Of a stretch of 26,506 bases of DNA, positions 4,535 to 25,285 are shown in pieces (position 1 is the stretch's first letter; each line of letters begins with the position of its first letter). Made by a program: the position numbers and the translations under genes. The stretch is from Planctomycetota bacterium (GTDB taxonomy: Bacteria > Planctomycetota > SZUA-567 > H5-PLA8). Location: the NCBI GenBank assembly GCA_045863855.1, contig BTVV01000083.1, positions 1 to 26,506 on the forward strand. Reading direction: 5' to 3'. The notes below the pieces were generated by a model. That model was not told the origin of the DNA, searched no databases, and saw only the letters and a program-made list of their open reading frames with translations.

Positions 4535-4535
4535 T

Positions 4536-9382: not shown

Positions 9383-9408
9383 ACCCTAGCGCAAATTTGC
9401 GCTAGGGT
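9383..9408. repeat. perfect 26-bp palindrome ACCCTAGCGCAAATTTGCGCTAGGGT
   Basis: Read directly from the sequence; no spacer. Confidence 0.9.
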
Positions 9409-9494
9409 CGCCGGCCGTCCTGGACCGTTCCTTCCCGCCGCCCTTCAAACCGCTTCCCGCGCCGCTGTACGGGGGCGCCCATCAGGAGCAACCC

Positions 9495-9713
9495 ATGAGC
9501 CTACCAGGTCGTACGTTCCACATTCGTTTACCGCCGCGCCTGCAACACGCGATCGAAACGCTCCACGCGCGCCATTTCGCGGGGCTGCCGGTCGGCTCGA
9601 TTTTGAAGCTGCTGGTCTTGGACCAGTTGAGCAAGGACGAAGCCGAACTGGTGCGGATCGTCGCCGAGCGGATCCGGCGGGGCGGGCGGGCCGAGCAATC
9701 GTTACCGCCGTAA
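9495..9713 (+). CDS. small ribbon-helix-helix-like DNA-binding protein
   Basis: AGGAG RBS. TFHIRLPPRLQHAIE fits the RHH beta-strand plus helix pattern. Confidence 0.6.
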   Translation: MSLPGRTFHIRLPPRLQHAIETLHARHFAGLPVGSILKLLVLDQLSKDEAELVRIVAERIRRGGRAEQSLPP

Positions 9714-9724
9714 GCGGCGGATTC

Positions 9725-9756
9725 CCCCTATTTTTCTCAACGTCTCGCGCGATAAT
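9725..9756 (+). promoter_or_regulatory. putative element-specific promoter CCCCTATTTTTCT-N13-GATAAT
   Basis: The same 13-mer, with the same spacing to a -10-like hexamer, recurs at 21795-21826. Confidence 0.55.
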
Positions 9757-9793
9757 GGCGTCGAAGTTTGAACCCCATAATGCGGAGGCACGC

Positions 9794-10078
9794 ATGGCTA
9801 CGCTTGAAATCACGCTGACGGATGACGTGGACGGTCCGGCCTTTGGCGACGGCACGCTCGCGCTCATGCCGCGATTCTTCGGCAACGGCCGCGAGTCGGC
9901 GCCGTGCGCGTTGCTCACGGTGAAGAGCTGCGACGGTGCGGTCGCGAGCCGGTTCCTGCTGGTCGTGAACGGCAGGAACCTGGCGCTTGAATTGGTGGAC
10001 CGCACGCGGCCGGTAATGGCGACGTTGGACCGGCTGGAGGCGGAAGCGGCGAAGGCGAAGGCCGCCGCCCCTTCGTAG
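9794..10078 (+). CDS. hypothetical protein (94 aa)
   Basis: GGAGG RBS before ATG 9794; GC-rich third codon positions. Confidence 0.65.
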   Translation: MATLEITLTDDVDGPAFGDGTLALMPRFFGNGRESAPCALLTVKSCDGAVASRFLLVVNGRNLALELVDRTRPVMATLDRLEAEAAKAKAAAPS

Positions 10079-10079
10079 G

Positions 10080-10478
10080 CTACTTCATCCGGCGCGCGGA
10101 CGATTCTTCTGCAAGCGCGAGCACCGGTAGTACGGCGGCCAGCGCATCCCGGTCGTGGCGTTCTAGGATCGCATCCAAGCGCTGACGCGCCTGGGCTGCC
10201 ATGGTGGACCACGGATCCGCAGGTTTCACCTGGATCAACTCGTGTGCGGCGACGCCCAATGCCTCCGCGATACGCACGACGAGTTCAAGGCCCGGCTCCG
10301 CCTCGCCCTTTTCCAGGCGCGTGATGTAGCTGAGGCTGAACGCCGCGCGTCGAGCCAGTTCGATCTGCTTCATGCCCAGGCCCGTCCGTAGCTCGCGTAC
10401 CCGACGGCCGAAATGCTTCACCGCTTCGGCGCGATTGAGCGCGACCTTTTTCCGCCGGCTCTTGTTCGATTTTGGCAT
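10080..10478 (-). CDS. XRE-family HTH transcriptional regulator (probable element repressor)
   Basis: FGRRVRELR..GMKQIELARRAAFSLSYITRLEKGEAEPGLELVVRIAEALGV is a canonical HTH_3 pattern. Confidence 0.9.
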   Translation of the reverse strand: MPKSNKSRRKKVALNRAEAVKHFGRRVRELRTGLGMKQIELARRAAFSLSYITRLEKGEAEPGLELVVRIAEALGVAAHELIQVKPADPWSTMAAQARQRLDAILERHDRDALAAVLPVLALAEESSARRMK

Positions 10479-10646
10479 GGTACGCCCTCTCCGGTGAGAT
10501 CGGCCGGAGAGGGAACACGTGCATACATACGATACTATCTATCAGACTACATTATTGTGCTTTGTGTGCCCCTAGTTATACTCCGCCGTTATCGAACGGG
10601 CCGATGGGCGCCCGGGGAACTTTATCGAGACTGCGGGGCGGGGCCG

Positions 10647-11309
10647 ATGAGCGAGATTACCGCGAAATGGGAAGCACTGGGCGGCAAGGGCGGCTTTCTC
10701 GGGGATGCGCTCCAAGAGGAATCCGCCTGCCCCGACGGCGTGGGACGATATCGCCCGTTTCAGCACGGCCACATCTATTGGCATCCGGAGACCGGCGCAC
10801 ACGAGGTCCATGGGGCCATCCGCGACAAGTATGGTGAAAGGGGCTGGGAGAAGAGCAACCTCGGATACCCAGTTTCGGACGAAAAGCCGGGGCTTGAAGG
10901 TATAGGGCGGTTTAGCGAATTTCAGCGCGGCTTTATCGTGTGGGACCAGGAGAAGAACACCTGCGAGGTGGTCGAAAACCAAGGTGAATACGCAAAGCAC
11001 TATTCCGAACCGGCGTTCTGGGAGACGGTGACCGACTACGCATTGAAGGCCGGGCGGCAGGTCATTGAATATGCGGTGATCCTGTACTACTCGCTGATGG
11101 ATCCGGATACTCCCGTTTGGGCACGAACGGTCATCCTTAGCGCATTGGGTTACTTCATCTTTCCCGTGGACGCCGTTCCTGATGTCGTTCCGGTCATCGG
11201 ATTTTCGGACGACTTGCTTGTTCTTGCTGCGGCCTTGGTCGTCGTAGCGATCCATATCAAGCCCGAGCACCGTGAAAAGGCGCAGTTGAAGCTGAAGGAG
11301 TGGTTCTAA
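10647..11309 (+). CDS. LGFP-repeat / YkvA (DUF1232) fusion protein
   Basis: Two LGFP-type repeats (W..LGG..G.LG, FQHGHIYW, LGYPVSDE, FQRGFIVW) followed by ALGYFIFPVDAVPDVVPVIGFSDD of DUF1232. Confidence 0.8.
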   Translation: MSEITAKWEALGGKGGFLGDALQEESACPDGVGRYRPFQHGHIYWHPETGAHEVHGAIRDKYGERGWEKSNLGYPVSDEKPGLEGIGRFSEFQRGFIVWDQEKNTCEVVENQGEYAKHYSEPAFWETVTDYALKAGRQVIEYAVILYYSLMDPDTPVWARTVILSALGYFIFPVDAVPDVVPVIGFSDDLLVLAAALVVVAIHIKPEHREKAQLKLKEWF

Positions 11310-11323
11310 GGCAGGGGGCCAAT

Positions 11324-11746
11324 ATGCCAAAGGGTGAAGAAGAGGAAGTGGGCACGGGGTGGAAGGTGCTCGGGCTTGGAATCCTGGGGCTTGTTTTCAT
11401 CATCACCCGTGTTGGGTCGCATTCCTACCCTTGGAACGAGCCCGGCTGCCAAGCGGGTCCCGGTGACCATGCCGGCGCCAACTCGGTCTACACAAGCCGC
11501 TACGAACCCGGATCCTACGGAGCTTTCTGGGAGAACGAGGAACGCGCCGCGCGGGGCGTACCCGGCGCCGTAGCCAGCCCGGGGCTGATGCCCAGCCGGG
11601 AGTTTTCCCAACGCGTCGAATCCCTTGCGCAAGAGCAAGGTTCGAAGGCGCAGCAACTGGAGATTGAACGCCAACGTGCGGAATTAGAGCAGCTTCGCCG
11701 CGAGCTAGACGCAATGAAATTAGAACGTGCGGAGAGGGGCTTCTAG
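11324..11746 (+). CDS. single-TM protein with C-terminal coiled coil
   Basis: TM segment VLGLGILGLVFII and an E/R/Q-rich coiled-coil tail; follows the upstream gene by 14 bp. Confidence 0.6.
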   Translation: MPKGEEEEVGTGWKVLGLGILGLVFIITRVGSHSYPWNEPGCQAGPGDHAGANSVYTSRYEPGSYGAFWENEERAARGVPGAVASPGLMPSREFSQRVESLAQEQGSKAQQLEIERQRAELEQLRRELDAMKLERAERGF

Positions 11747-11783
11747 CGGCGATTGGCATAGCGAGCCCAAGGAGGGAAGTGTC

Positions 11784-11954
11784 ATGCCATATTTCCATGA
11801 GCTTGTGCAACGCTACTGCGACAACATGGATTGGTTGGAAGAAAATCTCACGCCGGACGAAATGGCATGCGTTGAAGCCGTGGTATCTACCTTCCTATTC
11901 TTCGTGGGCTTTGTACCCTTCTACTTGCTCTTCCGCTGCATCAGCCCGCATTGA
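11784..11954 (+). CDS. small membrane protein (56 aa)
   Basis: AAGGAGG RBS and a C-terminal hydrophobic helix. Confidence 0.5.
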   Translation: MPYFHELVQRYCDNMDWLEENLTPDEMACVEAVVSTFLFFVGFVPFYLLFRCISPH

Positions 11955-12025
11955 TTCGGAGGTATGTAAGGAAAGACCAAGTATTCCGGCATGCCAGGGC
12001 TGCGCCATGCTTCCCGGAACGCCGT

Positions 12026-12964
12026 TCACACGGCGTCCAAGCCGAAGTCGTCCGCCGCGCTTTGCAGGATGCGGCCCAGCGCGAACGGGTCGGTTCCATT
12101 GGGCAGGTTCAAGAGTGCCGCCGCCAAACTTGCGCGTTCCTTCTCTTCGATCAGTTTCAGGCGCTCCCATTCACCCTTGGCCAAATGCCGGGTAATGCAG
12201 GCTTCAACCATGCGCCGCAGTTCGGCCATCGGCATGGCGTCAATCTCGACGGACTCGCCATCAAAGGAGGCCGCGCGGGAATCCGACTTCTTCGTCGGGC
12301 GCGTCGGGAGTTGGAACTGCTCGATCTGCTCCGGCAGGACGGCGACTCGCTCGAACTCAACGTCTACGTTGAAGTCCTCCTGCATGGTTGCCCGTGCTTT
12401 GCGGTCGATGAATACGCCGCTGGGGTCGTGGTCGCCGAAGTAGTAGACTTGGTTGCGCCGACGTTGAGTCTCCATCGCCTTGAAGATTCCAGCCGCAGCG
12501 CTCAGGCTGGAAAGACTGGCGAAACCGCGGCACGGAAAAACCTTCACGCCGAACGGTTCAGCCACGTCCTTCAGGATGCCTGCGATCGCGTCCTTCTCAC
12601 ACCATATCTCCACGTACACCCCCGTCGCCGACCATGCGTTCTTCCGGTACAGGCTCACGGCGCTTAAAAGCGCGTCCGAGATCGAATCGTAGGTCGGCAT
12701 GCCAATATGCCAGCGCTGGCTATCAACGAACGAGTCCCAGGGGATAGAGCCGGCACGGCGCCACCCGGCCAGCAGCCTGCACAGGCGCTTGTACTCGGCT
12801 TCGGTCTTCTCAAGCAAAGTGGCGCTCACCAGCCGGTAGAACATGTGCCTGACGGACATCTGGCCCGGTTCAGAGGCGAGGATGGCCATCGCTCCCTCCA
12901 AGAGGCGCTGCAATTCCGCCTTAGTGCTGCGGCCGCGCTTTACGAGACTAGTCCGGTAAGCCAT
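12026..12964 (-). CDS. Topo VI-A/Spo11-like (Mini-A / DUF2399-type) winged-helix + Toprim protein
   Basis: N-terminal MSVRHMFYRLV with a candidate catalytic Tyr; Toprim motifs VEIWCEKD, CRGFAS, YFGDHDPSG and EIDA. Confidence 0.8.
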   Translation of the reverse strand: MAYRTSLVKRGRSTKAELQRLLEGAMAILASEPGQMSVRHMFYRLVSATLLEKTEAEYKRLCRLLAGWRRAGSIPWDSFVDSQRWHIGMPTYDSISDALLSAVSLYRKNAWSATGVYVEIWCEKDAIAGILKDVAEPFGVKVFPCRGFASLSSLSAAAGIFKAMETQRRRNQVYYFGDHDPSGVFIDRKARATMQEDFNVDVEFERVAVLPEQIEQFQLPTRPTKKSDSRAASFDGESVEIDAMPMAELRRMVEACITRHLAKGEWERLKLIEEKERASLAAALLNLPNGTDPFALGRILQSAADDFGLDAV

Positions 12965-13105
12965 GGGTTGCCCCCTTTAAGTCGGAATCCGCTTTACTTT
13001 GCGTATCTCGCCATGCATTGCACTTCGGCCTTCTCCGCTGTGGAGAGGGGGCGGCTGATTGGCGAGCTCTTGGGCATCCCGCCGTTATTGGCAGGACTCA
13101 CAAAT

Positions 13106-13492
13106 TCACGAGCGTATCTCCGTGCGGGGGATCGGATGAACTTGGTACTGTGCAGTTCGTCCCGGCCCCACCAACTCTTGGGTGAGGTGCCCGCTAGACT
13201 TCAGCTTCGCCAGGGCCCATCGAATAGTGCGCAACGGTTTGCCCGCGAGAATCTCCAGTTTCTTCGCGGAGATGCGCGCGCAGTATTGTCCGGCTAGAGC
13301 ACCTTTCGAAAATCGCGCCTGCCGAGTCGCCTCCCATTCCAGGCAGAAGAGGACCGCCGACCGGGTATCGGGCATGGCGCGCGCCAACGCCTGCATGCGC
13401 GATAGCGAGATGTGCGCGAAGGCTTCCTGGGATACGGAGGCGATCCCGAGACCCACATCGTCATCGTTCAGCGGGGTAAGCGCGATTGTCAC
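13106..13492 (-). CDS. small winged-HTH DNA-binding protein
   Basis: ISAKKLEILAGKPLRTIRWALAKLKSSGHL...GRTAQY is a wHTH pattern. GTGA overlap with the polymerase stop. Confidence 0.7.
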   Translation of the reverse strand: MTIALTPLNDDDVGLGIASVSQEAFAHISLSRMQALARAMPDTRSAVLFCLEWEATRQARFSKGALAGQYCARISAKKLEILAGKPLRTIRWALAKLKSSGHLTQELVGPGRTAQYQVHPIPRTEIRS

Positions 13493-15279
13493 GAGGCCGC
13501 CTCCAGGCCCGCCAGCATGGTTTCGAGCGAGTCCTCCTTTCCGTCCTTGGCGAACCGTCGCAGGACCTCTATGTCCCGGCGCGGCATCAACCCGGGAAAC
13601 AGTTGCGACACGGCGTTGGCCGTGGCCGAAACGATGCGCTTCCGCGCCTCGGCAATCGCTTTCCGATCATCCAAGACGCTCAACAGGTACGCGTCGTGGA
13701 TCGGTAGGCGGATATCCAGGCCTAGATCGTCCAGGTAGAGGCCAGTTAGCTGAAAGCACGTGGCCGCGGCCGACTGTATCGGGAAGTTTTGGCAGGACCG
13801 AGCGAGGTGCCCATGGCCGACTCCGGGTTGGGCGGCAAAGCAAGCCCGAAACCCGAATGCGTTCTCCGCCCATCCGCGTTCCAAGCCAGCGGACACGTAC
13901 GCTTTGAGGTAATCGAAAAGCTCGCGGTAGGCGCGCTGGAACGCGGAGAGGTGGGCCAGTGCCGTCTGGTAGGGTACGCCCAGATCGGACGCGATGGACC
14001 TGATGCCCTTGCCGTACAGGATCGCAAGCATGAGCGCCTTTAGTAAGGTCTTTCGGACTCGCCGCTGCTCTTCGGGCGTCATGTCGTCGCGGATCAGACC
14101 CAGGCGCCGGCCCAGGTTGAGGTACACGTCGCCGTTCGCGAAATCCTGTAGCAGCGCGACACACCCGCTGATCCAGCCCGCGATCCCGGGCTCCTGCTGA
14201 CTGAAATCGAAATGCAGAAACACACAGCCTTCATCGGGGAGCAGGAGCGGGCGGAGTTCACCCGGCATGCCCATCAGATTTGGGGACACGGTGGAGTTTC
14301 GGCCTGTGTGCTGGGCCAGCGGCAGAATCCCGCATCGCAATCGGCCGTCGAGATCCACCCGGCTGCCGATATCCTGACCCATGAACGAATCGAACCGCCT
14401 AAGCTCATACGCCGCGTTGATCGCGGGGTGGAGCCCGCGAAATTCTTTCAGGTGCTCCTCCTTCGCGCTCAGCTTTCGAGTCGGGGTTTTGGGCCATTCT
14501 TGCGCCAAGCCCAAGTTGGAGATCATCCGCGTGAAACCCGTGCTGCCGAGGCCCTCTCCGTCGTGGTCGTAGCCGACCGAGCGCATCAGCTCAAGCCGTG
14601 GCTCTCGATACCGCGGGGCGGCCTCTTGCAGGCGCGACCACGCGTGTTGGTCGAACCTCAAACCCCGGCTGGCGGCTTGGGCCATCAGCCGTGTGTAGGG
14701 CTGGTACAGTTCGACGAGATTGCGCTCCGCAGTTGGCCCGCAATGGCGCTTTAGGTCGGCCATCAACGGGCCGAACGCCTTGAGAGATGTTCGGGCGTCG
14801 TCAGTACAGTATTCTAGTACGCGCTGCAGACCAAACTTTTCGGCGTGCTCTCCGCGCATTATCGCTTCGCGAATTTCGTCCTTTTCGCCTTCCCCGATGA
14901 AAGGGATGTGAAAACGCGAAGCGAGATTCCCGAGGCTCGCCGCGCGGTAGAATCCGCCGGGCAGCTTGAAGGCCGAGGCGTGCAACACCATCAGCAGCAT
15001 GGTCAACGTGTCGAAGTAGCGGTTGGGGAAACGCAGCCCGACAGCGCGGCAAAAGCCCAACTCGGCGTGCGCGCCGTGGACGATGAACACGTTCTCCGGA
15101 TCGTCGAGGACGCGCTGGAGTTGGCCGTAGTGCTCGGTCAGGCGCAGTTCGCGCCCATCGTCGAATACAAGACAGGCGCAAACCGGCTGGAGCGTGGTCA
15201 CGTCGGCGTGCGTGCGCCCACCACCCAGGTCCACCACACGCCGGAAGCTGTACTCCGTGTCGAAGCCGACCAGCATCAC
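13489..15279 (-). CDS. family A DNA polymerase with 3'-5' exonuclease and no 5'-3' nuclease domain (mobile-element type)
   Basis: ExoI FDTEY, ExoIII YCTDD, TGR motif, motif A DFSQQE, motif B RKTLLKALMLAILYG, NFPIQS and motif C IHD; 596 aa. Confidence 0.95.
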   Translation of the reverse strand: MMLVGFDTEYSFRRVVDLGGGRTHADVTTLQPVCACLVFDDGRELRLTEHYGQLQRVLDDPENVFIVHGAHAELGFCRAVGLRFPNRYFDTLTMLLMVLHASAFKLPGGFYRAASLGNLASRFHIPFIGEGEKDEIREAIMRGEHAEKFGLQRVLEYCTDDARTSLKAFGPLMADLKRHCGPTAERNLVELYQPYTRLMAQAASRGLRFDQHAWSRLQEAAPRYREPRLELMRSVGYDHDGEGLGSTGFTRMISNLGLAQEWPKTPTRKLSAKEEHLKEFRGLHPAINAAYELRRFDSFMGQDIGSRVDLDGRLRCGILPLAQHTGRNSTVSPNLMGMPGELRPLLLPDEGCVFLHFDFSQQEPGIAGWISGCVALLQDFANGDVYLNLGRRLGLIRDDMTPEEQRRVRKTLLKALMLAILYGKGIRSIASDLGVPYQTALAHLSAFQRAYRELFDYLKAYVSAGLERGWAENAFGFRACFAAQPGVGHGHLARSCQNFPIQSAAATCFQLTGLYLDDLGLDIRLPIHDAYLLSVLDDRKAIAEARKRIVSATANAVSQLFPGLMPRRDIEVLRRFAKDGKEDSLETMLAGLEAAS

Positions 15280-16037
15280 CCGACCTCCTTCGCGGCGAGC
15301 AGAGTCCGAATCTCGGCGTTGTCGGCGGCCAGCGCGTTGATGTCGTCGTAGGCCACGGCCTGGAGCGCATCAATGATCGCGTCCTGGTCGGGCCACGCGA
15401 CCTGCACGATGGCGTCGCGCTCGGTCTCGGTGAGGTCGAGCAGGTGGATCACGTGGCGGCGTTTCGAGTCGCTCCACTCTTTGAACGTTTTGTAGTGCGG
15501 GAATCGCGGCTGCAACTGCCGCAGGTCGGCCACGACACGCTGGCCGAACCTGGTCAGCGAGAGCGGCATGAGAACCACTTCAAAGGTCGCCCACGCGAAG
15601 GCCGGCACGAACAGCAACCGGCGCGCGCGCGGCAGGACACGAGGGTCCCGCAGCAACGGCCCCGCTAGGATTTGATGGATCGCCTCGAATTCGCCCTCGG
15701 GCTTGTACGCAAGCCCGTGGAACGAGAGCGCGGCGTCGAGCTTGGGCGTGAAGGTCGCTCCAACGCCCCGCAACTCCCGCACCTCCAGCGACTCGACCGC
15801 TTGCGGTACGGCGAGCTGTGCGTCGGCGGCAGCCGCCAGGTCTACGCGCTTGCGCGGCTGCGGCAGCGGGATCGGCGCCGGCATGCCGGCGTTCGAGAAT
15901 TTCATCGCCGGCTCGACGGCACCTCCCTTCTCGGCAGCAGGCTCGCCATCAGCCGGGCTCGACGCATTGGCCCCCTCGTGATCCAGCGTCCCATCGGGTC
16001 CATCATCCAGCATGCCCGTAGCGACTACGGTGCCCAT
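15276..16037 (-). CDS. hypothetical protein coupled to the polymerase (possible SSB-like accessory factor)
   Basis: AGGAG RBS before ATG 16037; stop overlaps the polymerase start (GTGA). Function is inferred from position only. Confidence 0.65.
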   Translation of the reverse strand: MGTVVATGMLDDGPDGTLDHEGANASSPADGEPAAEKGGAVEPAMKFSNAGMPAPIPLPQPRKRVDLAAAADAQLAVPQAVESLEVRELRGVGATFTPKLDAALSFHGLAYKPEGEFEAIHQILAGPLLRDPRVLPRARRLLFVPAFAWATFEVVLMPLSLTRFGQRVVADLRQLQPRFPHYKTFKEWSDSKRRHVIHLLDLTETERDAIVQVAWPDQDAIIDALQAVAYDDINALAADNAEIRTLLAAKEVG

Positions 16038-16229
16038 GGGTGATCTCCTGGCATGGAGCGGCCCGCGCCGCTGCCCTCTCGGTGGTGGTGGCCAGGATCG
16101 GGCGGGCGGACGCGGGCCGCTATGTGTGAGAGACTGCCTGGCCACCGGGGGAATATGTACGAGGCGTCTTGCGGGTATCGCAAGGGCGACTGTTGCGGAG
16201 CGTTGCGGGCTCTCGACAACCAGATTGAG

Positions 16230-16706
16230 CTAGACGTTCTTTCGGAGGCGGTACTCCCTGCCACTACCAGACTTGCCATTTGATTCCAGCACGTTGGCTT
16301 GAACCATTAGCCTGAGCCATTTTGTTCGCGTCGTCCGATCGCGGGCTTTGAGATCCCCGGCCTTGAACCAATCGCCCGACGTCTTTTGGACTTGCTCCAA
16401 GAATTTCTGATGCGTGGCGAACCCCACCCCCTGGGGAGCCGGGACCGCCTCAGGCTGGGGGGCATCATTGGGCGTGCAGGTAGGGTGGGGCGAACTAATC
16501 GCAAGGCTGTAGTGCTTAGGTAGGGGGTGGTTCCAGACAATCGAACCCTCGCGCTCAAGGTGTTCGAGCACTTCGCGCAGACGATCCCGAAGATCCTCCC
16601 TGGCTTCGGCTGGGAGTTCCCGCCTTAGATAGTTCAATAGTTGAAAGTGGGACTTGGCCCCGATACCGAGCGTGGCCTTCACCAGCCGAAGAACTTGCTT
16701 GTTCAC
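16230..16706 (-). CDS. tandem winged-helix-like DNA-binding protein
   Basis: GGGAGG RBS before GTG 16706. Two segments (LREVLEHLEREGSI and WLRLMVQANVLESNGKSGSGREYRL) resemble wHTH ends, joined by a Pro-rich linker. Confidence 0.6.
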   Translation of the reverse strand: MNKQVLRLVKATLGIGAKSHFQLLNYLRRELPAEAREDLRDRLREVLEHLEREGSIVWNHPLPKHYSLAISSPHPTCTPNDAPQPEAVPAPQGVGFATHQKFLEQVQKTSGDWFKAGDLKARDRTTRTKWLRLMVQANVLESNGKSGSGREYRLRKNV

Positions 16707-16737
16707 CGGAATGCCTCCCCACCAAGAGGATTCTTCA

Positions 16738-16847
16738 TAGTAGTAGAGTAGTAGACAGGAGTGCAACCCGTTGCACGGGTATGGTGCGATGCGTTGCACC
16801 GGTTGTGGGCCCCGAAACAGCAACGTATTGCACCCCTAAAGCACCCC
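16738..16847. repeat. three 16-bp palindromic units (consensus GTGCAAC-NN-GTTGCAC) next to a TAG-rich tract; candidate origin or operator array
   Basis: 16761-16776 GTGCAACCCGTTGCAC, 16784-16799 GTGCGATGCGTTGCAC, 16818-16833 CAGCAACGTATTGCAC; TAGTAGTAGAGTAGTAG at 16738-16754. Confidence 0.65.
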
Positions 16848-16988
16848 AATCTGCCTATGGTCTGGTCTCGTCGATGCCTCCGAGCAACGTCGTGCCGACC
16901 CGCTGACTGCCCCCGCTCTCTATCGAGAATCTAGATAACGAACGCCGCAATCTGATTACATCAAGAACCCCTGCGCTGGAGATCTCAA

Positions 16989-17410: not shown

Positions 17411-17944
17411 ATGATTCGCCTTTCCGCCAATTTGTCCCGCAAGGTCCCGATCGCGGGCGTGCAGTTCAGCAGCCAGCAATTCGGCGCGTCCTTGGAAATT
17501 GAAGTCAGCGACGCCGACAAGCCGGAAGCGATCCAGGCCAGGATTCGCGAACTCTACGACTTGCTCAATCGCAGCATCGAAGAGCAGATCACCGCAGCCT
17601 CCGAGGCCAAGGGCGAATCCGCGCCCGGCGGCAACGACCAGGAGCCGGGAGGTAACGGCCAGCCGAAGGCCCAGCCGGAGGCGCGTCGCAACGGTCGCGC
17701 TTCGCCGCCCCGCGCTCAATACCGCCGCAACACCGGAGGCAACGGCCAGGGCAACGGCGGCAACGCCGAGCGCCGCTCCGCTGGCGCAACGCAGGCCCAA
17801 CAGCGCGCGATCTTCGCGATCTGCAAACAGCAGGGCATTGAGATGGCCGACGTGTTGGCCGACTACAACGTCGCCGACGCGCGCGACCTGACCGTGATGG
17901 ACGCGTCGAAGCTGATTGACGACCTGAAGTCCCGCAGCGCCTGA
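17411..17944 (+). CDS. hypothetical protein, first large gene of the rightward arm
   Basis: AGGAG RBS. Globular N-terminus, G/N-rich linker and C-terminal ATQAQ...LTVMDASKLIDDLK helical module. Confidence 0.8.
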   Translation: MIRLSANLSRKVPIAGVQFSSQQFGASLEIEVSDADKPEAIQARIRELYDLLNRSIEEQITAASEAKGESAPGGNDQEPGGNGQPKAQPEARRNGRASPPRAQYRRNTGGNGQGNGGNAERRSAGATQAQQRAIFAICKQQGIEMADVLADYNVADARDLTVMDASKLIDDLKSRSA

Positions 17945-18009
17945 AGCATTCGACGTACCTACTTCCCGCCATCACGATCACCGTACCCGATACCTAAAAG
18001 GAGAACTTC

Positions 18010-18855
18010 ATGCCGATTCAAGCGGCAGCCGCGCCGTCGTCTATCCAGACGGCGGCCGGCCCATTGCTCGACCACCTGAGTTGGTCGGGTGTCACGACGT
18101 ATCTGCAATGTCCAAAGAAGTTCGATTACCGCTACCTGGCCGATGCGCCCGAAGAGCGCAAGTCCGCCGCGCTGCTGTTCGGCGGCGCGTTCCACCGTGC
18201 CGCCGAGGCGGCTTTCCAGGCGCGCCTGGAAGGCCGTCCATTCCCGACCGTGGCCGAACTGCTGGCCGTGTATGACCGCGCTTGGAAGGAGGAAACGGCG
18301 GCAGCGCCCGAAGTCGTGTACGCCAAAGGCGAGGACGCCGCGAGCCTGCACGCCCTGGCCGAGCGGATGCTGGTCGCGTTCGTGGAGCACCTTGACGGTG
18401 AAGCCAAGTCCGCGCCACACCGCCGAATCCTTGCATTGGAGCACGCAAGCCGATTCATGCTCCTGCCGGAGACGCCGCCTCTGGAAGCGCGGCTCGACGT
18501 GTTGGAACTCGACGGGAATGACCTGCTGGTGACGGAAATCAAGACGAGCAAATCCCGCTGGAACGACCAGAAGGTGGCCGAAGCCCTGCCGCAACTGGTC
18601 GTGTACGCGCACGCGCTCATGCCGCTGCTGCGCGAGATCGGCGCAAAGCGTATCCGGCCGCGTTTTGTCGTGGTTTCAAAAGCCAAATCGCCCGTTGTCC
18701 AGGTACTGGAACCGAAGGCGACCCAAGCCGACGTGCGGCGCTTGCGCGAACAGGCCGGCGAAGTCTGGAAAGGCATCCGTGCCGGAGTGTTTCCGGCTCG
18801 CGAAGGATGGTGGTGTACGGCGTGTCCGTTTCGAACCGCGTGCCAAGGACGATGA
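18010..18855 (+). CDS. PD-(D/E)XK nuclease, RecB/AddB/Cas4-like with probable Fe-S cluster
   Basis: LSWS..TYLQCP, G.AFH, RLD...EIKTS, QLVVY and C-terminal CTACPFRTAC (1+3 Cys); AAGGAG RBS. Confidence 0.9.
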   Translation: MPIQAAAAPSSIQTAAGPLLDHLSWSGVTTYLQCPKKFDYRYLADAPEERKSAALLFGGAFHRAAEAAFQARLEGRPFPTVAELLAVYDRAWKEETAAAPEVVYAKGEDAASLHALAERMLVAFVEHLDGEAKSAPHRRILALEHASRFMLLPETPPLEARLDVLELDGNDLLVTEIKTSKSRWNDQKVAEALPQLVVYAHALMPLLREIGAKRIRPRFVVVSKAKSPVVQVLEPKATQADVRRLREQAGEVWKGIRAGVFPAREGWWCTACPFRTACQGR

Positions 18856-18858
18856 ACC

Positions 18859-19236
18859 ATGACGATCTGGAGCAAAATGTGGACGGCGGCCAAGACCGTC
18901 CTCCCGGATACACGAACCGGCGGCGAGAGCCTTCGCGACGTTGCCGACCCCACGCTGGAACGCGCGGCGGCGAGAGCCATGGACGTGGTGGACCGCGCGG
19001 CGCAGCACGAACACGAACTGCTGGAAGACGGCGAAATGCGTGCGCGGCGGCTCGTCGAGGACGTGGACAGCCGCGTGGACGCGCAACGCGAGCGTTTGCT
19101 GGACCGCACCGAGCACGTATGTGACCGGATCACGCGCCGGCTCGTTGTACGCGTGCTCGTGGTCGGACTCGTGCTGGTGGGCGCCACCGGCGCCGTAGCG
19201 GTGGCGGCCGTGTGGGCCGCGAAACTTCTACGCTAA
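18859..19236 (+). CDS. helical protein with C-terminal membrane anchor
   Basis: Starts 3 bp after the nuclease stop; charged helical body and hydrophobic C-terminus. Confidence 0.7.
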   Translation: MTIWSKMWTAAKTVLPDTRTGGESLRDVADPTLERAAARAMDVVDRAAQHEHELLEDGEMRARRLVEDVDSRVDAQRERLLDRTEHVCDRITRRLVVRVLVVGLVLVGATGAVAVAAVWAAKLLR

Positions 19237-19305
19237 GTCCTACTCAGTCGCTCTCGCGCCGCGCGGCACGGGTGCCTTCCCACCCCAACCTTTGGAGAAA
19301 CCATA

Positions 19306-19533
19306 ATGACCGCTGAAAACGTGGCCTTGATTCCACCCCGCCGCCGGGACCAGCTCTTCGGCGAGATCAAGAAGCTCGTCGCCGAGATCGACGCGCAGAA
19401 CCGCAGCCTGGGCGCGGTGGACGAGGACGGCGCCCTGATTGACGAAGCGCTGGAACAGATCGCGGGCCTGCTCGCCGCGGAAGTCAGCCGCGCCAAACGG
19501 CAAAGCCGCAGGCGTACCGCCGTAGCCGCGTAA
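19306..19533 (+). CDS. hypothetical protein (75 aa)
   Basis: GGAG RBS and high GC at third positions. Confidence 0.7.
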   Translation: MTAENVALIPPRRRDQLFGEIKKLVAEIDAQNRSLGAVDEDGALIDEALEQIAGLLAAEVSRAKRQSRRRTAVAA

Positions 19534-19551
19534 TCGTGCCGATCCTGTAGG

Positions 19552-19655
19552 GCCGCTCGCAAGCCAGCAGGCATCACAAGCCGTGCCCCGGCACGGCGGC
19601 GCGGGGCTACGCCGGTACCGGGCCGGCGAAGATGCCCCGCGGCGGGCGGCTTTTT
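19552..19655 (+). terminator. multibranch GC-rich structure followed by T5 (terminator/attenuator candidate)
   Basis: 19552-19560 pairs with 19642-19650; inner stems 19580-19597 and 19600-19641; TTTTT at 19651-19655. Confidence 0.45.
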
Positions 19656-19717
19656 CATTCACACGCACCATCCTCTTCACCACAACCACACCCGAATCTC
19701 ATGTGAAAGGTCCATCC

Positions 19718-20794
19718 ATGCCCATGGAAAGCACCACGTTGTATTACAGGGAAGGCAACTCCGACAAAGTGTATCAGGCGCGCATCGAACCGCAGGACGC
19801 GGGCTACGTCGTGAACTTCGCTTTCGGACGGCGCGGAAGCACGCTCCAGACCGGCACGAAGACGGCTTCGCCGGTGCCGCTCGACGAGGCCAGGAGGATC
19901 TACGAACGGCTCGTGCAGTCGAAGCAGGCGAAAGGGTACACGCCGGGCGAGGACGGCACGCCGTACTCAGGCACCGAGAAGGCCGAGCAGGATTCGGGAC
20001 TGCGGCCCCAACTCTTGAACGCGATCACCGAAGACGAAGTCGAGCCCTACCTGCTCGATCCCGCGTATTGGCTCCAGGAGAAGAAGGACGGCCGGCGCGT
20101 GCTGGTCCGTAAGGCCGATGGAGAAGTCACGGGCATCAACCGGCGCGGGCTGACGATGGGTTTGCCCGAAACCATCGTCAAGGCCGCGCGCGCGTTACGC
20201 GCCGACTTCGTCCTCGATGGGGAAGCCGTAGGCGACCGGATCTTCGCCTTCGACTGCCTGGAACGCGGCGCGTCGAAGCTGGAGAAGCTGCCCTACCGCG
20301 ATCGGTGGCGCATTCTGCTCGAACTGGTCGGCGGTCGCGGCGGCGCCATAGAGGTCCTGCCCACGGCGGCGGCGAGCGGGGACAAGCGCGATCTGCTGCG
20401 GTTTCTGCGGGAACGGAACGCCGAAGGCGTCGTCCTGAAAGACCGTGGCGCGCCGTATACGCCGGGGCGGCCGGCCAGCGGGGGGCCGCAACTCAAACTG
20501 AAGTTCACGGCCACCTGCTCCTGCATCGTCGCGCCGGGCCGTAACGGCAAGCGCAGCGTCGGCCTGGAACTGCTCGACGGGCTTAAGCTCGTGCCCGTCG
20601 GCCACGTCACCATCCCGCCAAATACGACCATCCCCAAGGTCGGCGGGGTCATCGAAGTGCGCTACCTCTACGCTTACCAGGGTGGCGCGCTCTACCAGCC
20701 GGCTTTCTTGGGCCGCCGCACCGACATCTTGACCGCCGCCTGTACCCTCGCCCAACTGAAGTTCCGCCGTGAAGACGGCGAAGACGAAGCCTGA
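19718..20794 (+). CDS. WGR-domain ATP-dependent DNA ligase
   Basis: N-terminal WGR-like domain (SDKVY...FGRRG...KQAKGY); ligase motifs I EKKDG, III LDGE, IIIa FAFD, IV EGVVLK and V KLK; C-terminal OB-like segment. Confidence 0.9.
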   Translation: MPMESTTLYYREGNSDKVYQARIEPQDAGYVVNFAFGRRGSTLQTGTKTASPVPLDEARRIYERLVQSKQAKGYTPGEDGTPYSGTEKAEQDSGLRPQLLNAITEDEVEPYLLDPAYWLQEKKDGRRVLVRKADGEVTGINRRGLTMGLPETIVKAARALRADFVLDGEAVGDRIFAFDCLERGASKLEKLPYRDRWRILLELVGGRGGAIEVLPTAAASGDKRDLLRFLRERNAEGVVLKDRGAPYTPGRPASGGPQLKLKFTATCSCIVAPGRNGKRSVGLELLDGLKLVPVGHVTIPPNTTIPKVGGVIEVRYLYAYQGGALYQPAFLGRRTDILTAACTLAQLKFRREDGEDEA

Positions 20795-20855
20795 TCCGCA
20801 CCTGCGTTCCTCGTTTGTCGGACTAGTCCATTAAACCCTTCAAGGAGGAAGGTCC

Positions 20856-21611
20856 ATGTTGATGTTGTCCAAAGCCCAGGAAGTCTCGCGCCACGATCTG
20901 GGCGCGATCCCCACGCCAAAGTCCACGGATACGTGGCGTCCCGTGCCGCACCTGGAAGTCGTCGAAACCCTGCTGCGGCGCGCCCAGGCCAAGGGTCTGC
21001 GCGTGACCGGCGAGCGCTACGCCGTCATGGACGGGTCGCTGTACCCCCAGCCGGGCGTGCAAGTTTCGCTGCGCGGCGCGCGCATGTTCGGGTCGCTGGA
21101 TTTCGCGCCGATCCCGGGCCTGAGATTCCCGCCGGGGTGCATGCCGTCCGCCGGCATCCGCAACAGCCACGACAAGTCGTTCGCGCTCTCGATCCTGAGC
21201 GGAGCGCGCGTGCTGGTCTGCGCCAACGGCGTCCTGAGCGCCGAGCACGTGATCAGCCGGAAGCACACCAGCGGCCTGGAGCTGACCGCCGAAGTGGACC
21301 GTGCGCTCGATGCCTTCCTGGCGAGCACGACTGCGTTCCACGACACCTACATGCAGTTGCGTGGCACGAGCCTCTCGAAAGCCCGGTCCCATCACTTGGT
21401 GGTGGAACTGGCCCGGGCGGGCGCGTTCTCGTCCTCCGATATCGTGCCCGTTGTTGAGGAGTTCGAGAACCCGCGCCATCCGGAGTTCCGGGAGCGCAAC
21501 GCCTGGACGCTTTACCAGTCGGCGACCGAGGTCATGAAGCGCCAATCGCCGGCGCGGCAGGTGGACGGCTTCAAGGCGCTGAATTCGGTCCTGTTGGAAC
21601 TGGTCAACTGA
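20856..21611 (+). CDS. DUF932-family protein
   Basis: TDTWRPVPH, GIRNSHDKS, GARVLVCANG, RKHT and NAWTLYQ motifs; AAGGAGG RBS. Confidence 0.85.
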   Translation: MLMLSKAQEVSRHDLGAIPTPKSTDTWRPVPHLEVVETLLRRAQAKGLRVTGERYAVMDGSLYPQPGVQVSLRGARMFGSLDFAPIPGLRFPPGCMPSAGIRNSHDKSFALSILSGARVLVCANGVLSAEHVISRKHTSGLELTAEVDRALDAFLASTTAFHDTYMQLRGTSLSKARSHHLVVELARAGAFSSSDIVPVVEEFENPRHPEFRERNAWTLYQSATEVMKRQSPARQVDGFKALNSVLLELVN

Positions 21612-21613
21612 AC

Positions 21614-21648
21614 GAAGGGCCGCGCCGCTTACCACGGCGCGGCCCTTC
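21614..21648 (+). terminator. 14-bp perfect stem-loop after the DUF932 gene
   Basis: GAAGGGCCGCGCCG-CTTACCA-CGGCGCGGCCCTTC; U-tract is weak. Confidence 0.6.
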
Positions 21649-21794
21649 CATTCGCCCAAGCAAGGAAGCCGCCATGAGACGGTTCACTCGCCGGATCGCC
21701 GCCAGCACGTGAACGGCGGCGCGTTGCTCGCCGTTCACGTGCTGCGCCGGGTGCTTCGGAAAGGTTGTCGCGGCACGTATGTAGATGGTGGTAA

Positions 21795-21826
21795 CCCCTA
21801 TTTTTCTGGGACGGACTCGATAAGAT
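21795..21826 (+). promoter_or_regulatory. putative element-specific promoter CCCCTATTTTTCT-N13-TAAGAT
   Basis: Second copy of the motif at 9725-9756. Confidence 0.55.
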
Positions 21827-21864
21827 TGGGCTGTCGGATCGAGGCGGGTTGGGGGAGGGACGGT

Positions 21865-22392
21865 ATGCCTGAGAGTCCAGAAACCAAGCCGCCCGAAGCG
21901 GCCGACGAAACCATCGCCGATGTTTTGTTGAAGCTCGCCCAGGCCGGCGACCTGAGCAAGGTCGCACAAACCCTGTCCGGTCGCGGCGTGCTGGCCTATG
22001 AACCTCAGGATCACCAAAAAATTATTCGCCGTTGCATCGCGGCCTGCGCCCAAGCGGGCACGCCGCAGCTGGCTGATGCCCTGTTGCAATCCATGCTCGC
22101 GTTTGACGGCGCGCTGCTGTTGCGCGCACAAACGCGGGCGCTTTTTCAGATGAAGCGCGCGGACGCCGAGTCTGGCCCCACCGTCGGCCCCTTGCCCAAG
22201 GAAGCCGTGGAAGAACTCGAACGGGTTGGCCGGCTCGAAGAACGGATAGTTTTCCTGGCCCAGAACTACAGCCGGGTCCAGCGTTCGTTGGGTTTGCCTG
22301 GGTGCGGCGGCAAGCGCAAGGGGAGCGGCCAAGTGCTGCGGATGGGCGATTACCTGGATGACAACGAAGTCCCCGCAAAGGGCGGCGAGTAG
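21865..22392 (+). CDS. hypothetical protein
   Basis: GGAGG RBS before ATG 21865; predicted helical. Confidence 0.7.
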   Translation: MPESPETKPPEAADETIADVLLKLAQAGDLSKVAQTLSGRGVLAYEPQDHQKIIRRCIAACAQAGTPQLADALLQSMLAFDGALLLRAQTRALFQMKRADAESGPTVGPLPKEAVEELERVGRLEERIVFLAQNYSRVQRSLGLPGCGGKRKGSGQVLRMGDYLDDNEVPAKGGE

Positions 22393-22394
22393 CC

Positions 22395-22916
22395 ATGCCG
22401 CCCGCGGCACATCAGCAGTGGACCGAAGCGGAGTTGATGGCCTTAATCCCGCCGGAGTATCTCCAGAAATTGCATGAGCTGCGCCCCGTTCTGGAAGTGC
22501 AGGGCACGGTTTTGCTCCGCTACGAACGAGATCGGCGGCAAGCCTTCTCTCTGCGTTACCGCGCCCAGGACCCCGATGGGCGTTGGGTTCATCGAGCCGT
22601 TGCCATGGGCGGCTGGGAGTCGGGGCCGTACGCGCGGCTCTTGATCAAGAAGTGGCGGTGCGAGCGTCGGGCCAAGCGCGCCGCCGAACTGGCGGAAGCG
22701 GCCCGGCAGGCGCGGCTGGAAGCGCGGGCGCGCCGATTAGAACGCCAGCTGGTCCGCAAGATCCTGCCCGGCGGAAAGTTGTTCAAACGCAGGGCGATGA
22801 AAGCGTTCGACGAGGCGGCCGGCAAGAGCCCACTGCACGCGCTCGGATTCCTGCACGGCATGGACGACTTGCAGCCTGCTCGGCCGGGTCGTCCCCGGCG
22901 CGGGAGGCTCTGGTAG
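22395..22916 (+). CDS. basic hypothetical protein
   Basis: 173 aa, starts 2 bp after the upstream stop, Arg-rich. Confidence 0.65.
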   Translation: MPPAAHQQWTEAELMALIPPEYLQKLHELRPVLEVQGTVLLRYERDRRQAFSLRYRAQDPDGRWVHRAVAMGGWESGPYARLLIKKWRCERRAKRAAELAEAARQARLEARARRLERQLVRKILPGGKLFKRRAMKAFDEAAGKSPLHALGFLHGMDDLQPARPGRPRRGRLW

Positions 22917-23068
22917 CGCGACAGAGCACATACGACGGGCTTCTCCGGGCTCGTTTCCCAACCCCGCCGGAAGTGCGTTTTCAACCCAGGTGCATGTACC
23001 CGCATTCTGGGCGCGTCCGAACCTAGCCCCAGCCCCTGCAAAACCACCAATATAAGGAAGGTCCAACC

Positions 23069-23335
23069 ATGCTCACGAAAAGCAGGTCACGTCGCCAGGC
23101 TCGCAGCGGGCTACAGTGCCCGCATTGCGGGAACGCCGTTTTCTGGTCGCTGTACCGTGCCGTGATCCGAGTCGAACACATGCAGCAAACCGGCCCCCGG
23201 ACCTGGCGCCGTATGCGGACGGAGAATCGGCGCTACGATTTGCCGCTTCCGCTCTGCATGGTTTGCGAGCGCTGCGGGCACCCCGCGCCGGTACCGGAAA
23301 GAGTTCGTGCTTCTTCGGCTAGCCATGCCCCTTGA
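23069..23335 (+). CDS. small zinc-ribbon protein
   Basis: CPHC...CERC pairs; AAGGAAGG RBS. Confidence 0.65.
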   Translation: MLTKSRSRRQARSGLQCPHCGNAVFWSLYRAVIRVEHMQQTGPRTWRRMRTENRRYDLPLPLCMVCERCGHPAPVPERVRASSASHAP

Positions 23336-23359
23336 CGACAGCGCCAGATATGGTACGAA
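23332..23359 (+). promoter_or_regulatory. possible sigma70 promoter for the excisionase-integrase unit
   Basis: TTGACG-N16-TACGAA with a TGn extended -10. Confidence 0.3.
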
Positions 23360-23595
23360 ATGTTCAGCGACTACGCGCGATGACAGCGCATCGCTCGATC
23401 AACCATCGAGGATCTGAGCCGCAGGTAAACCGCGAGAAGTGATGCGCGAACGCCTCGGCCGGTCGCTACCCCAAGTTGTTGATATTAGTCGTTCCAACGG
23501 CGCCCGTCGGCGTGCCGTCTTCGCTTGGGTTTCGCCCTGCCCCTTCCGCACCTTCCTCGCTCCTGTGGCCGGACTCGGCATTGCCGGAGTGCCGG

Positions 23596-23946
23596 ATGCA
23601 GAAGCCGAAACAGCCTTCCGAACACCATCTAAAGCTAGAGTCCGAAGTACATCCACCCGACTTCGAGGCAGAAGAGCCGGTCAATGCGACCGAGACTCGT
23701 GACCCTCGGCAGCCGGGTTCTTCATCCGCCTCCCTCCTGGTGGACGCCAAATCCGCGGCCGAGTTGATCGGCGTTTCTCCATCCACCTTTTGGAAGCTGC
23801 ACTCGCAAGGCCGCATCCCGAACCCGATGCGGCTTGGGGGGCGTGTTGTTCGTTGGCGCCGCGAAGAACTTAGCGCTTGGGTGCGCGCCGGCTGCCCTGC
23901 CCGCCACCTTTGGCGGCCTGACGATCGAACGAAGAGTAGGAGCTAA
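23596..23946 (+). CDS. AlpA-family excisionase / recombination directionality factor
   Basis: LLVDAKSAAELIGVSPSTFWKL...GRIPNPMRLGGRVVRWRREELSAW; lies directly before the integrase. Start codon uncertain. Confidence 0.85.
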   Translation: MQKPKQPSEHHLKLESEVHPPDFEAEEPVNATETRDPRQPGSSSASLLVDAKSAAELIGVSPSTFWKLHSQGRIPNPMRLGGRVVRWRREELSAWVRAGCPARHLWRPDDRTKSRS

Positions 23947-23950
23947 TCAA

Positions 23951-25192
23951 ATGAGAATCTTCAAGGCTACGTACAAGGATCGCAACGACCAGCGCCGGAC
24001 ATCGGCGAAGTGGTATGGGGAGTTCAAGGACCACAACCAGCGAGTTCGAAGGGCTCCCCTCGTTACTGACAAGGCCGCGAGCCTTGAGCTGGGCCACAAG
24101 ATCGAGCGGTTGGTCGCGCTCAAAGTTTCGGGTGAAAGCCCGGATCTCGACTTGGCCAAATGGATGGTGGCCGCGCCGAGGCATGTCATGCGCAAGCTGG
24201 TTGAGTGGGGTGTTGTCGAATCCAGCCGCCTCGGGGCGATGAAGTCTTTCAAGGAGCATTTGGAAGACTATCTGGACGACTTGTCCGCTGCGGGAAATTC
24301 GGCGAAGCACGCCATCGTTTCACATGCGCGCGCGAAGCGGGTCATAGAGGGATGCCGGTTCGGATTCATCTCGGACGTCAACCGGGAGGCCATCAAGGAG
24401 TTCTTAGGGAGGCTTCTCAAGAAGGGGAGGATCGGTCCCAAGACCTACGGATACTATGTTCGCGACTTGAAGGCGTTCTTTAAGTGGATGCGCCGGTCCA
24501 GCAGGCTTCGAGAGGACCCTGTGGAGCATTTGGAGGGGTTGGGCGCCTCCGCGATCGCGAAGGGGAGGCGCCGGATTCGGCGTGCTTTGACCATCAAGGA
24601 GATTTTGCTGCTTCTCGTGTCAACCTGTGACCAGCCCTTCCGGTACGGCATGAAAGGGCAGGAGCGGGCGCTGGTCTACCGCCTGGCTCTTGAGACCGGA
24701 CTACGGGCAGCGGAGCTTGCAAGTCTAAGGCGGGCAAGCTTCCATCTAGGCGCCAAGCCAGCAACGGTCTTTCTCTCCGGAGCGTCCACAAAGAACCTGC
24801 GGGATGCAGAGCTGCCGCTTCGGAATGAAACCGCACTTCTGCTACGGGACCATTTGGCGGCGAAGCTGCCCGGTGCGAAGGCGTTTGCCATGCCACCCAG
24901 TACGGAGACCGCACGGATGCTCCGGGCGGATTTGGCCGCGGCCGGGATTCCCGATAAGGATTCCCAGGGCCGAGTCGTTGATTTTCATGCCCTACGGCAC
25001 ACCTTCCTGACCCTCCTGGCCGCCAGCGGGGTACACCCTAAAGTTGCCCAAGACTTGGCTCGCCATTCGGACATAAACTTGACCCTCTCCAGGTACAGCC
25101 ATACCATCCTGGAACAGCGCTCGGAAGCAGTGGATCGGCTCCCCAAATTCGACAAAGTCGATGTCCAGGACGCGGAGACGGGGCCGAATTAG
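23951..25192 (+). CDS. tyrosine recombinase / phage-type integrase
   Basis: Catalytic R (TGLRAAE), K (STKN), HALRH, ARHS and Y (SRYSH); AGGAG RBS before ATG 23951. Confidence 0.95.
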   Translation: MRIFKATYKDRNDQRRTSAKWYGEFKDHNQRVRRAPLVTDKAASLELGHKIERLVALKVSGESPDLDLAKWMVAAPRHVMRKLVEWGVVESSRLGAMKSFKEHLEDYLDDLSAAGNSAKHAIVSHARAKRVIEGCRFGFISDVNREAIKEFLGRLLKKGRIGPKTYGYYVRDLKAFFKWMRRSSRLREDPVEHLEGLGASAIAKGRRRIRRALTIKEILLLLVSTCDQPFRYGMKGQERALVYRLALETGLRAAELASLRRASFHLGAKPATVFLSGASTKNLRDAELPLRNETALLLRDHLAAKLPGAKAFAMPPSTETARMLRADLAAAGIPDKDSQGRVVDFHALRHTFLTLLAASGVHPKVAQDLARHSDINLTLSRYSHTILEQRSEAVDRLPKFDKVDVQDAETGPN

Positions 25193-25200
25193 GATCCATC

Positions 25201-25264
25201 TGCTTGGCGGAATGCTTGGCGGAATTTGCCGGATTTGGGCGGACTAATACGGACCTTGACGGAC
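25201..25264 (+). repeat. tandem TGCTTGGCGGAA x2 plus phased CGGA repeats (candidate integrase arm / Xis sites)
   Basis: CGGA starts at 25208, 25220, 25230, 25240, 25250 and 25260. Confidence 0.7.
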
Positions 25265-25285
25265 CCTCCCAGAGGGGAAGTCGGC

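Follow-up and report, generated by a model that had tools for sequence, protein, structure and literature searches.

What kind of mobile element combines a DNA polymerase, a nuclease and a ligase with an excisionase and an integrase of its own, and where does it begin and end? These questions are raised by a contig of 26,506 nucleotides (BTVV01000083.1, assembly GCA_045863855.1) from a Planctomycetota bacterium, which in its full length constitutes the window analysed here and is called C83 within the genome G000 (6.9 Mb in 287 contigs). A preliminary description had drawn in it, at 9383-25285, a satellite-like or mobilisable self-replicating island of about 16 kb, possibly dependent on a helper such as the element that starts at 25375. 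In the reading that we consider probable, this segment forms the conserved core of a more extended island at tRNA-Leu(CAA), which belongs to a planctomycete family without detected virion or conjugation genes; the island, excised as a circle, would be copied by its own family A DNA polymerase (PolA) together with a protein resembling single-stranded DNA-binding proteins (SSB-like), and would afterwards hitchhike on a helper. A literature search, with most subscription journals outside its scope, returned no account of this island family.

The ends of the island at tRNA-Leu(CAA)

Where does the island end? The features that bear on its extent, including the attachment (att) sites, are the following:

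1..25329: right-hand part of an att-bounded island, which runs off the left end of the contig and has its attL on contig C197
514..8913: cargo-type genes (Pfam), encoding unknown proteins, an abhydrolase-like protein, an XRE helix-turn-helix (HTH) protein, an ECF sigma-ankyrin fusion, a GNAT protein and a membrane protein
9383..9408: perfect 26-nt palindrome, a candidate operator or repetitive extragenic palindromic (REP)-like repeat
25203..25329 (+): attR, composed of arm-type repeats and the island-supplied 5′ half of tRNA-Leu(CAA)
25286..25374 (+): tRNA-Leu(CAA), a gene flanked by two independent elements
25375..26506 (+): left end of the second, separate element, with its own arm repeats, an integrase from 25492 and its other end at C53:1740-1805

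The 5′ half of the tRNA gene (25283-25329, 47 bp) is duplicated with 100% identity at C197:3980-4026, and a 16-mer that occurs in the genome only at C83:25206 (between the integrase and the tRNA) and at C197:3919 (beside the half-tRNA) provides a unique pair. The 3′ half is repeated on C53, preceded there by short repeats that are also found 3′ of the window tRNA. Both duplications overlap at 25317-25329, that is, in the anticodon loop, in which the crossover of the integrase is likely to take place, the 5′ half being resupplied by the island. Integration at the 5′ side of this tRNA is a point that the preliminary description did not contain. From the attL half and the arm motif on C197 a length of 25.3 + 4.0 kb results, i.e., at least 29 kb, and the att repeats on C197 and C53 give the order host-attL (C197)-island 1-integrase-tRNA-second integrase-element 2-3′ half (C53)-host nuoA. 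The unit of 16 kb has to be abandoned, as the far end of the island is on C197 and 9383 is a recurrent palindrome.

The same site and geometry are found in G066, a genome of the same genus in 8 contigs, in which the host gene of C197, the 5′ half, 168 kb, a 63% identical integrase, the full tRNA and nuoA follow one another, so that the island is framed by host DNA, with a PQQ gene on the outer side of attL and nuoA past the tRNA. Given that the second element is absent at that tRNA, its role as an obligate helper is rejected, and with it the proposed dependence on the element at 25375, whose content was lost in the assembly gap. In both G000 and G066 a sigma-70-like promoter remains (by eye) with the displaced 5′ half and, because this half (on C197) keeps the promoter, the restored tRNA, if transcribed at all, would depend on a start in the DNA of the island. 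As for the intact gene, it lies between two elements, each of which duplicates one of its halves, and is separated from the host promoter on C197. Relatives of the integrase with 61-63% identity are encoded in G066, G091 and G268, and the genes for those of G268 and G091 adjoin tRNA-Arg(TCT) at its 3′ side.

Position 9383 was considered as an att site or terminal repeat and ruled out, since it is a palindrome that is crossed unchanged by contigs of two runs, both of which may come from the source sample. The 26-nt palindrome occurs in 5 of the 17 genomes of the family (vs. 0 for a control pattern), with at most four copies per genome, which are placed in islands and in host intergenic spacers (L143, L146-L152), and no exact match was found in viral contigs. 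We infer from the att geometry that the cargo at 514-8913 lies inside the island, and it is essentially without counterpart in the G066 island. It includes an XRE-HTH gene (4536-4973), with a partial second copy at 8115-8258 and more on C124, C42, C128, C133, C162 and C105, as well as the gene in which an ECF sigma factor is joined to ankyrin repeats (5367-7547).

A conserved core and its sibling islands

Which part of the island is shared with others? The core comprises, from left to right, these features, with open reading frames abbreviated as ORFs:

9495..10478: regulatory trio, formed by a ribbon-helix-helix (RHH)-like small ORF (by inspection), a conserved ORF and an XRE-HTH repressor-like gene
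10647..11954 (+): LGFP-DUF1232 protein and two small ORFs (variable cargo)
12026..12964 (-): Toprim/topoisomerase-like protein (PHROG 6247 ‘DNA topoisomerase’, E 5.5e-49)
13106..13492 (-): small winged-helix protein that may bind an origin
13489..15279 (-): family A DNA polymerase (PF00476, E 3e-22)
15276..16037 (-): OB-fold protein with resemblance to gp32-type SSBs, whose stop overlaps the PolA start
16230..16823 (-): probable winged-helix regulator at the head of the replication operon (by inspection; no significant family match)
16824..17410: divergent control region, from gene orientation
17411..17944 (+): conserved backbone protein, the first of the right arm
18010..18855 (+): PD-(D/E)XK nuclease, Cas4/RecB-like (E 5e-33)
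18859..19533 (+): two small conserved ORFs
19718..20794 (+): WGR-domain ATP-dependent DNA ligase
20856..21611 (+): DUF932 protein; a hairpin with a 14-bp stem lies just 3′ of its gene (21614-21648)
21865..23335 (+): two conserved ORFs and a zinc-ribbon ORF
23476..23946 (+): excisionase, AlpA/HTH_17, whose real start is probably 3′ of the first ORF codon
23834..25192 (+): tyrosine integrase

Scans of the window ORFs (34 against Pfam; 26 against PHROGs and NCBIfam) bear out the polymerase, nuclease, ligase, DUF932 protein, excisionase and integrase recognised at the outset, together with an XRE regulator, and the divergence of the two arms is confirmed around 16.8-17.4 kb, while the SSB-fold ORF (15276-16037) and the Toprim-like ORF (12026-12964) are additions to that gene list. 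Searches with the ligase and the integrase led to eight sibling regions in five genomes of the same family, plus a distant region in G245. The right arm (17411 ORF, nuclease, WGR-ligase, DUF932, excisionase and integrase) recurs in these eight same-family regions, over which the gene counts are taken (leaving out the window and G245): the nuclease and the ligase are each found in 7/8, the 17411 ORF in 6/8 and DUF932 in 5/8, with identities of 39-87% (75-87% for the DUF932 siblings). Among 401 genomes of the phylum, the 17411 ORF is present in 17 (its nearest Atlas cluster has 6718 members, with Planctomycetota as the commonest phylum) and the WGR-ligase, at E<=1e-50, in 6.

The siblings are inserted in tRNA-Leu, tRNA-Arg, tRNA-Gly and tmRNA genes, and three of them are complete and att-bounded: that of G066 (168 kb), that on C2 of G313 (~41 kb, in tRNA-Arg, with a 43-bp duplication) and that on C1 of G313 (~50 kb, in tmRNA, with a 23-bp duplication). 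Their cargo includes defence systems (DUF499-DUF1156-SNF2, GmrSD), metal efflux, Tad pili, nitrate reductase and B12 enzymes, and with 40-170 kb of such defence and metabolic genes the islands are likely to be a principal means by which this uncultured host family acquires genes. Regarding the control elements, the region 16824-17410 is matched at 72% by DNA of the island in G066 and contains a single weak sigma-70-like site (17244-17273; one found vs. 0.3 expected), the XRE regulator at 10080-10478 matches Pfam HTH_3 (E 8.5e-13), and paralogs of the regulatory trio are found on C117, C157, C164, C167, C208 and C230 and also in the siblings.

Several further modules were observed around the shared arm. 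A second DUF932 variant (21494-21569) appears at equal depth in runs X2 and X3 and suggests a sibling island missing from the assembly. The right arm of the G066 island contains a cassette of ubiquitin-like, ThiF, AAA, NYN and DUF2997 genes (L129, 4131-12059), and the same ThiF/AAA cassette stands among host genes on C24 of G000 (3697-11607), pointing to a separately mobile module. A reverse transcriptase cassette (L179, 4261-8099, in G205; L004, 7159-10959) lies in the control region of a sibling island.

Do the islands encode any means of leaving the cell? In the window, no capsid, relaxase or type IV secretion system (T4SS) family was recognised by the scans, the sole packaging-category match being that of the excisionase HTH to a TerS family, which is marginal (E 0.008). 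When five genomes were searched in six frames with seven Pfam families (PF02534, PF19044, PF08751, PF03432, PF05065, PF03354 and PF03237), representing a coupling protein, a VirB4-type ATPase, TrwC, MOBP relaxase, capsid and two kinds of terminase, none of the three complete islands showed a match. Likewise, 64 sibling proteins compared with PHROGs yielded replication and integration families and no virion family; in the G066 island, 78 of the 114 listed proteins were family-scanned. Terminases and one capsid were found outside the islands, among them those of a prophage on C67 of G000. This prophage-like contig, with capsid and large terminase, is a candidate helper, and on C1 of G000 a terminase-like gene at 46445 lies 18 kb off a 26-tRNA array (23667-28178).

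It could be thought that the islands are what is left of temperate phages or of integrative and conjugative elements (ICEs): the early and replication regions would have been kept, virion or transfer modules deleted and cargo added later. We regard this as unlikely, in spite of the phage-like character of the divergent arms, XRE regulator, excisionase-integrase pair, nuclease, ligase, gp32-like SSB and PolA, of the decayed copies (frameshifts in several genes of one G313 copy; integrase remnants at the same tRNA in G091 and G283) and of the presence of Uroviricota in an Atlas cluster, the third among the neighbours of the 17411 ORF. PolA3 polymerases are moreover reported from prophage regions (PMC12926913), and this group may include relatives. 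Against such an origin, three complete islands at three different sites are all devoid of virion and conjugation matches, the backbone genes are still open at 45-87% identity, and the window PolA has no close viral or plasmid relative (IMG/VR best <=31% among the matches listed; GenBank phages <=28% among 25 listed; right-arm genes were not searched in viral collections).

Quite improbable, in our view, is that the island belongs to the integrative conjugative or mobilisable elements, with a relaxase or T4SS that lies in the stretch missing from the assembly or has diverged beyond detection. The whole genomes of G066, G313, G268 and G205 contain no coupling protein, VirB4-type ATPase, TrwC or MOBP (MOBQ, MOBH, MOBV and MOBC were not searched genome-wide). 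On the other side, the C197-C83 link spans an assembly gap that could hide a transfer module, an unplaced coupling-protein fragment (PF02534) is present on C267 of G000, and the G066 island has a Tad pilus cluster. DUF932, the DUF6094 methyltransferase with a helicase (found in G268) and the ThiF/AAA cassette of G066 are, in addition, typical of plasmid and ICE backbones.

The characterisation as a satellite of 16 kb does not hold, since the unit measures at least 29 kb and the search for satellite hallmarks, capsid and TerS among them, yielded none. The broader idea of an integrative class with replication genes and without a virion or conjugation module persists at the family level, on the basis of the three complete siblings; its polymerase, in turn, proves to be optional.

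The polymerase slot and the window PolA

Is the polymerase what defines these islands? The slot was compared over nine regions (the window and its eight siblings), and a PolA in a divergent arm was found in four: the window, G313 C2 (608 aa), G313 C1 (744 aa) and G268 (787 aa); the island of G066 and G205 have none, and two other regions are cut by contig ends. The 744-aa enzyme is encoded after a primase/D5-type helicase and before a Toprim-like gene, whose product is a 56% identical homolog of that of the window; the latter has no sequence match in PDB. As the enzymes come from at least two deeply separate lineages and are absent from some islands, the polymerase module is an exchangeable accessory and not the defining gene.

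The window PolA has 3′-5′ exonuclease and polymerase domains and lacks the 5′-3′ exonuclease (AlphaFold2 model, pLDDT 89). Its exonuclease domain is full-length, with the DxE and YxxxD motifs, and D6, E8, Y156, D160, D357, K413, L417, H527 and D528 are conserved across 34 aligned sequences. It has 44 close relatives (48-62% identity), beyond which identity is <=30%, and the named organisms among its relatives are Gemmataceae and Singulisphaera. The clade, represented by three species genomes and seven metagenome loci, was found in 0 of the 400 other phylum genomes sampled and in none of the sibling islands.

In these ten loci the winged-helix-turn-helix (wHTH) gene directly follows PolA without exception, and the SSB-like gene is 5′ of PolA in all five with room for it; an integrase lies downstream in four and a tRNA in two, and one locus continues into a possibly primase-like fragment (by eye). 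The wHTH homologs give weak HTH and Phage_rep_org_N matches (E 0.004-0.07). In L021, L022 and L029 another regulator-like ORF takes the place of the gene at 16230-16823. This ORF, located 5′ of the SSB-like gene, is conserved (335-377 aa, ~30% identity) and has by inspection an OmpR-like winged helix at its C-terminus, with no significant Pfam match.

The ORF at 15276-16037 is likely an SSB with some resemblance to gp32, as judged from its structural model (core pLDDT ~80-90). The best structural matches of the model are RB69 and T4 gp32 (Z 5.5, root-mean-square deviation 4.6-4.9, 140-143 aligned residues), a middling Z by which this identity is likely at most. A phage SSB is matched in BFVD (E 1.8e-4), Foldseek against PDB gives nothing at E<=0.001, with gp32 at rank 5, and the Atlas search returned no usable match. 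Profile comparison of the SSB-like and wHTH proteins with the genes beside the 608-aa PolA of G313 was not significant (probability 0.5 and 0.7), so that the three-gene layout common to the window and G313 is positional only.

A quick tree of 35 sequences, with long branches and no named CHEAP included, joins the window clade to the G313 608-aa PolA (SH-aLRT 100) and places this pair apart from the 744/787-aa enzymes, Pol I and an 841-aa PolA on C176 of G000. Of 129 full-length relatives retrieved by profile search, 96 have HDA in motif C, 102 the leucine of B3, and 99 are nearer to the 608-aa enzyme, which resembles (by eye) a CHEAP fragment of I. dechloratans contained in a supplement (PMC10201439). 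The window clade is read as CHEAP-related. As regards other enzymes, the very divergent 841-aa PolA stands with a primase-like gene in what appears as another polymerase-bearing element (L011, on C176, 1203-6635), and G066 has two more non-Pol I family A polymerases outside its 168-kb island (C1:4815 and C1:3101331).

Might the SSB-PolA-wHTH trio be instead a small integrative element in its own right, inserted within the island and serving repair or recombination and not replication? The absence of this module from the sampled phylum genomes and from the siblings would fit this, as would the Gemmataceae and metagenome loci in which it is compact and directly beside its own excisionase and integrase (in the compact loci L022 and L023 no att duplicate was found). 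The module of the window has, on the contrary, neither an integrase nor att sites of its own and fills the slot in which siblings have other PolA modules, and we give this explanation very little credence.

Possible life cycle and known systems

How would such an island live under the reading that we consider probable? The XRE and RHH-like regulators would keep it silent until induction from the divergent region switches on both arms, and the integrase and excisionase would release it as a circle. The wHTH protein would then bind the origin and PolA, as the elongating enzyme, would copy the circle with the SSB-like protein, the nuclease and ligase possibly processing, repairing or recombining the excised DNA. 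Neither a primase nor a helicase was recognised in the window, so that priming and unwinding would be supplied from elsewhere, be it by the host, by the Toprim-like ORF or by the part that is missing from the assembly. Transfer would require a helper phage, vesicles or transformation.

Self-replication would be an optional trait of the islands, and several observations weigh against the scheme. Apart from the lack of a recognised primase or helicase, no island PolA accompanies the backbone in the island of G066 or in G205, and the frameshifted copy and integrase remnants already described speak of decay. The gap spanned by the C197-C83 link and the coupling-protein fragment on C267 leave room for transfer genes, and divergent planctomycete relaxases or capsids could escape the seven families searched genome-wide. 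The raised coverage and attP junction expected for an active element were not seen: depth in run X1 is flat (8.7-12.7 over 9.3-24.5 kb vs. 12.6-12.7 in repeat-free bins leftward), contig depth being no equivalent of copy number, and there is neither an attP circle nor an empty site in the assembled contigs, which cannot phase the 47-bp repeat. The island side of C197 is somewhat deeper than the host side in 4/4 runs (X1: 9.7 vs. 6.3-7.9), a difference too weak for use.

Pipolins are att-bounded elements integrated in tRNA or tmRNA genes, with their own polymerase, defence cargo and integrase exchange, without T4SS and with proposed hitchhiking (PMC11551731). The islands share with them the tRNA/tmRNA att repeats with a tyrosine recombinase, the possession of a polymerase, a conserved core with defence cargo, the exchange of integrases, the lack of detected T4SS families and the proposed hitchhiking; unlike them, their enzyme is not a primer-independent PolB (piPolB) but a family A one, swappable and optional, their core genes differ, and the window island is at the 5′ side of its tRNA, whereas 99.8% of pipolins are at the 3′ end. 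Cargo tycheposons carry a tRNA integrase, an excisionase, an optional polymerase/primase/helicase module and cargo, without capsid or conjugation machinery, and seed large islands (bioRxiv 10.1101/2020.12.28.424599). By that description the islands are alike in tRNA integration, excisionase, optional replication module, cargo, the lack of detected capsid or conjugation genes and the seeding of large islands, and differ in phylum, in their larger size (41-168 kb), in the conserved nuclease-ligase-DUF932 arm and in the integrase (23834-25192), which reads toward the att end. Islands with a displaced 5′ tRNA fragment are known but rare (159/3919 in Islander, PMC4383910); the fragment upstream and the anticodon-loop site are common to them and the window, in which a second element additionally occupies the 3′ flank of this tRNA.

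CHEAPs (PolA cluster 15) have been described as cellular auxiliary enzymes (PMC10201439). The window PolA is similar to them in its ~600 aa, exonuclease and polymerase domains, intact motifs, B3 leucine and coexistence with Pol I, although its clade is only ~26% identical to the CHEAP-like G313 enzyme and <=30% to the 129 nearest full-length relatives, and both the window and G313 enzymes are inside att-bounded islands. The CCPol-MP-Cch2 set of SCCmec (PMC10201439) offers a parallel, in that its PolA is related to CHEAPs, is carried by an integrative element without capsid genes and has the gene of a beta-barrel partner beside it; there, the exonuclease of CCPol is truncated, while the window PolA keeps that domain, its partner is gp32-like and larger, no Cch2-like helicase is present and the recombinase is of the tyrosine type. 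A bolder proposal, which we hold to be rather doubtful, is that of a distinct class of self-replicating integrative elements organised around polymerases of family A, an equivalent of pipolins with PolA in the place of piPolB. In it, the window clade would be the minimal form, with PolA, the gp32-like partner and the wHTH origin binder priming and displacing strands without dedicated primase or helicase, and CHEAPs would serve to replicate islands and would not be auxiliary enzymes of the cell.

Phage-inducible chromosomal islands (PICIs), their cf-PICI relatives and P4-like satellites differ from the window island, in which no capsid, TerS or capsid-redirecting gene was found and whose unit is of at least 29 kb and not of 10-20 kb, and prophages differ from the three complete siblings in which no terminase/capsid module was found, the G000 island itself having a gap. 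Taken as a whole, the islands may be seen by analogy as a PolA-bearing counterpart of pipolins and cargo tycheposons. To our knowledge, the self-synthesizing elements of prokaryotes have so far relied mostly on family B polymerases. Islands that swap family A polymerases in one slot would extend the lifestyle of pipolins and tycheposons to a new phylum and a new polymerase family, giving CHEAP-type enzymes a testable genomic role and offering a rare compact polymerase-SSB pair for the study of priming and strand displacement.

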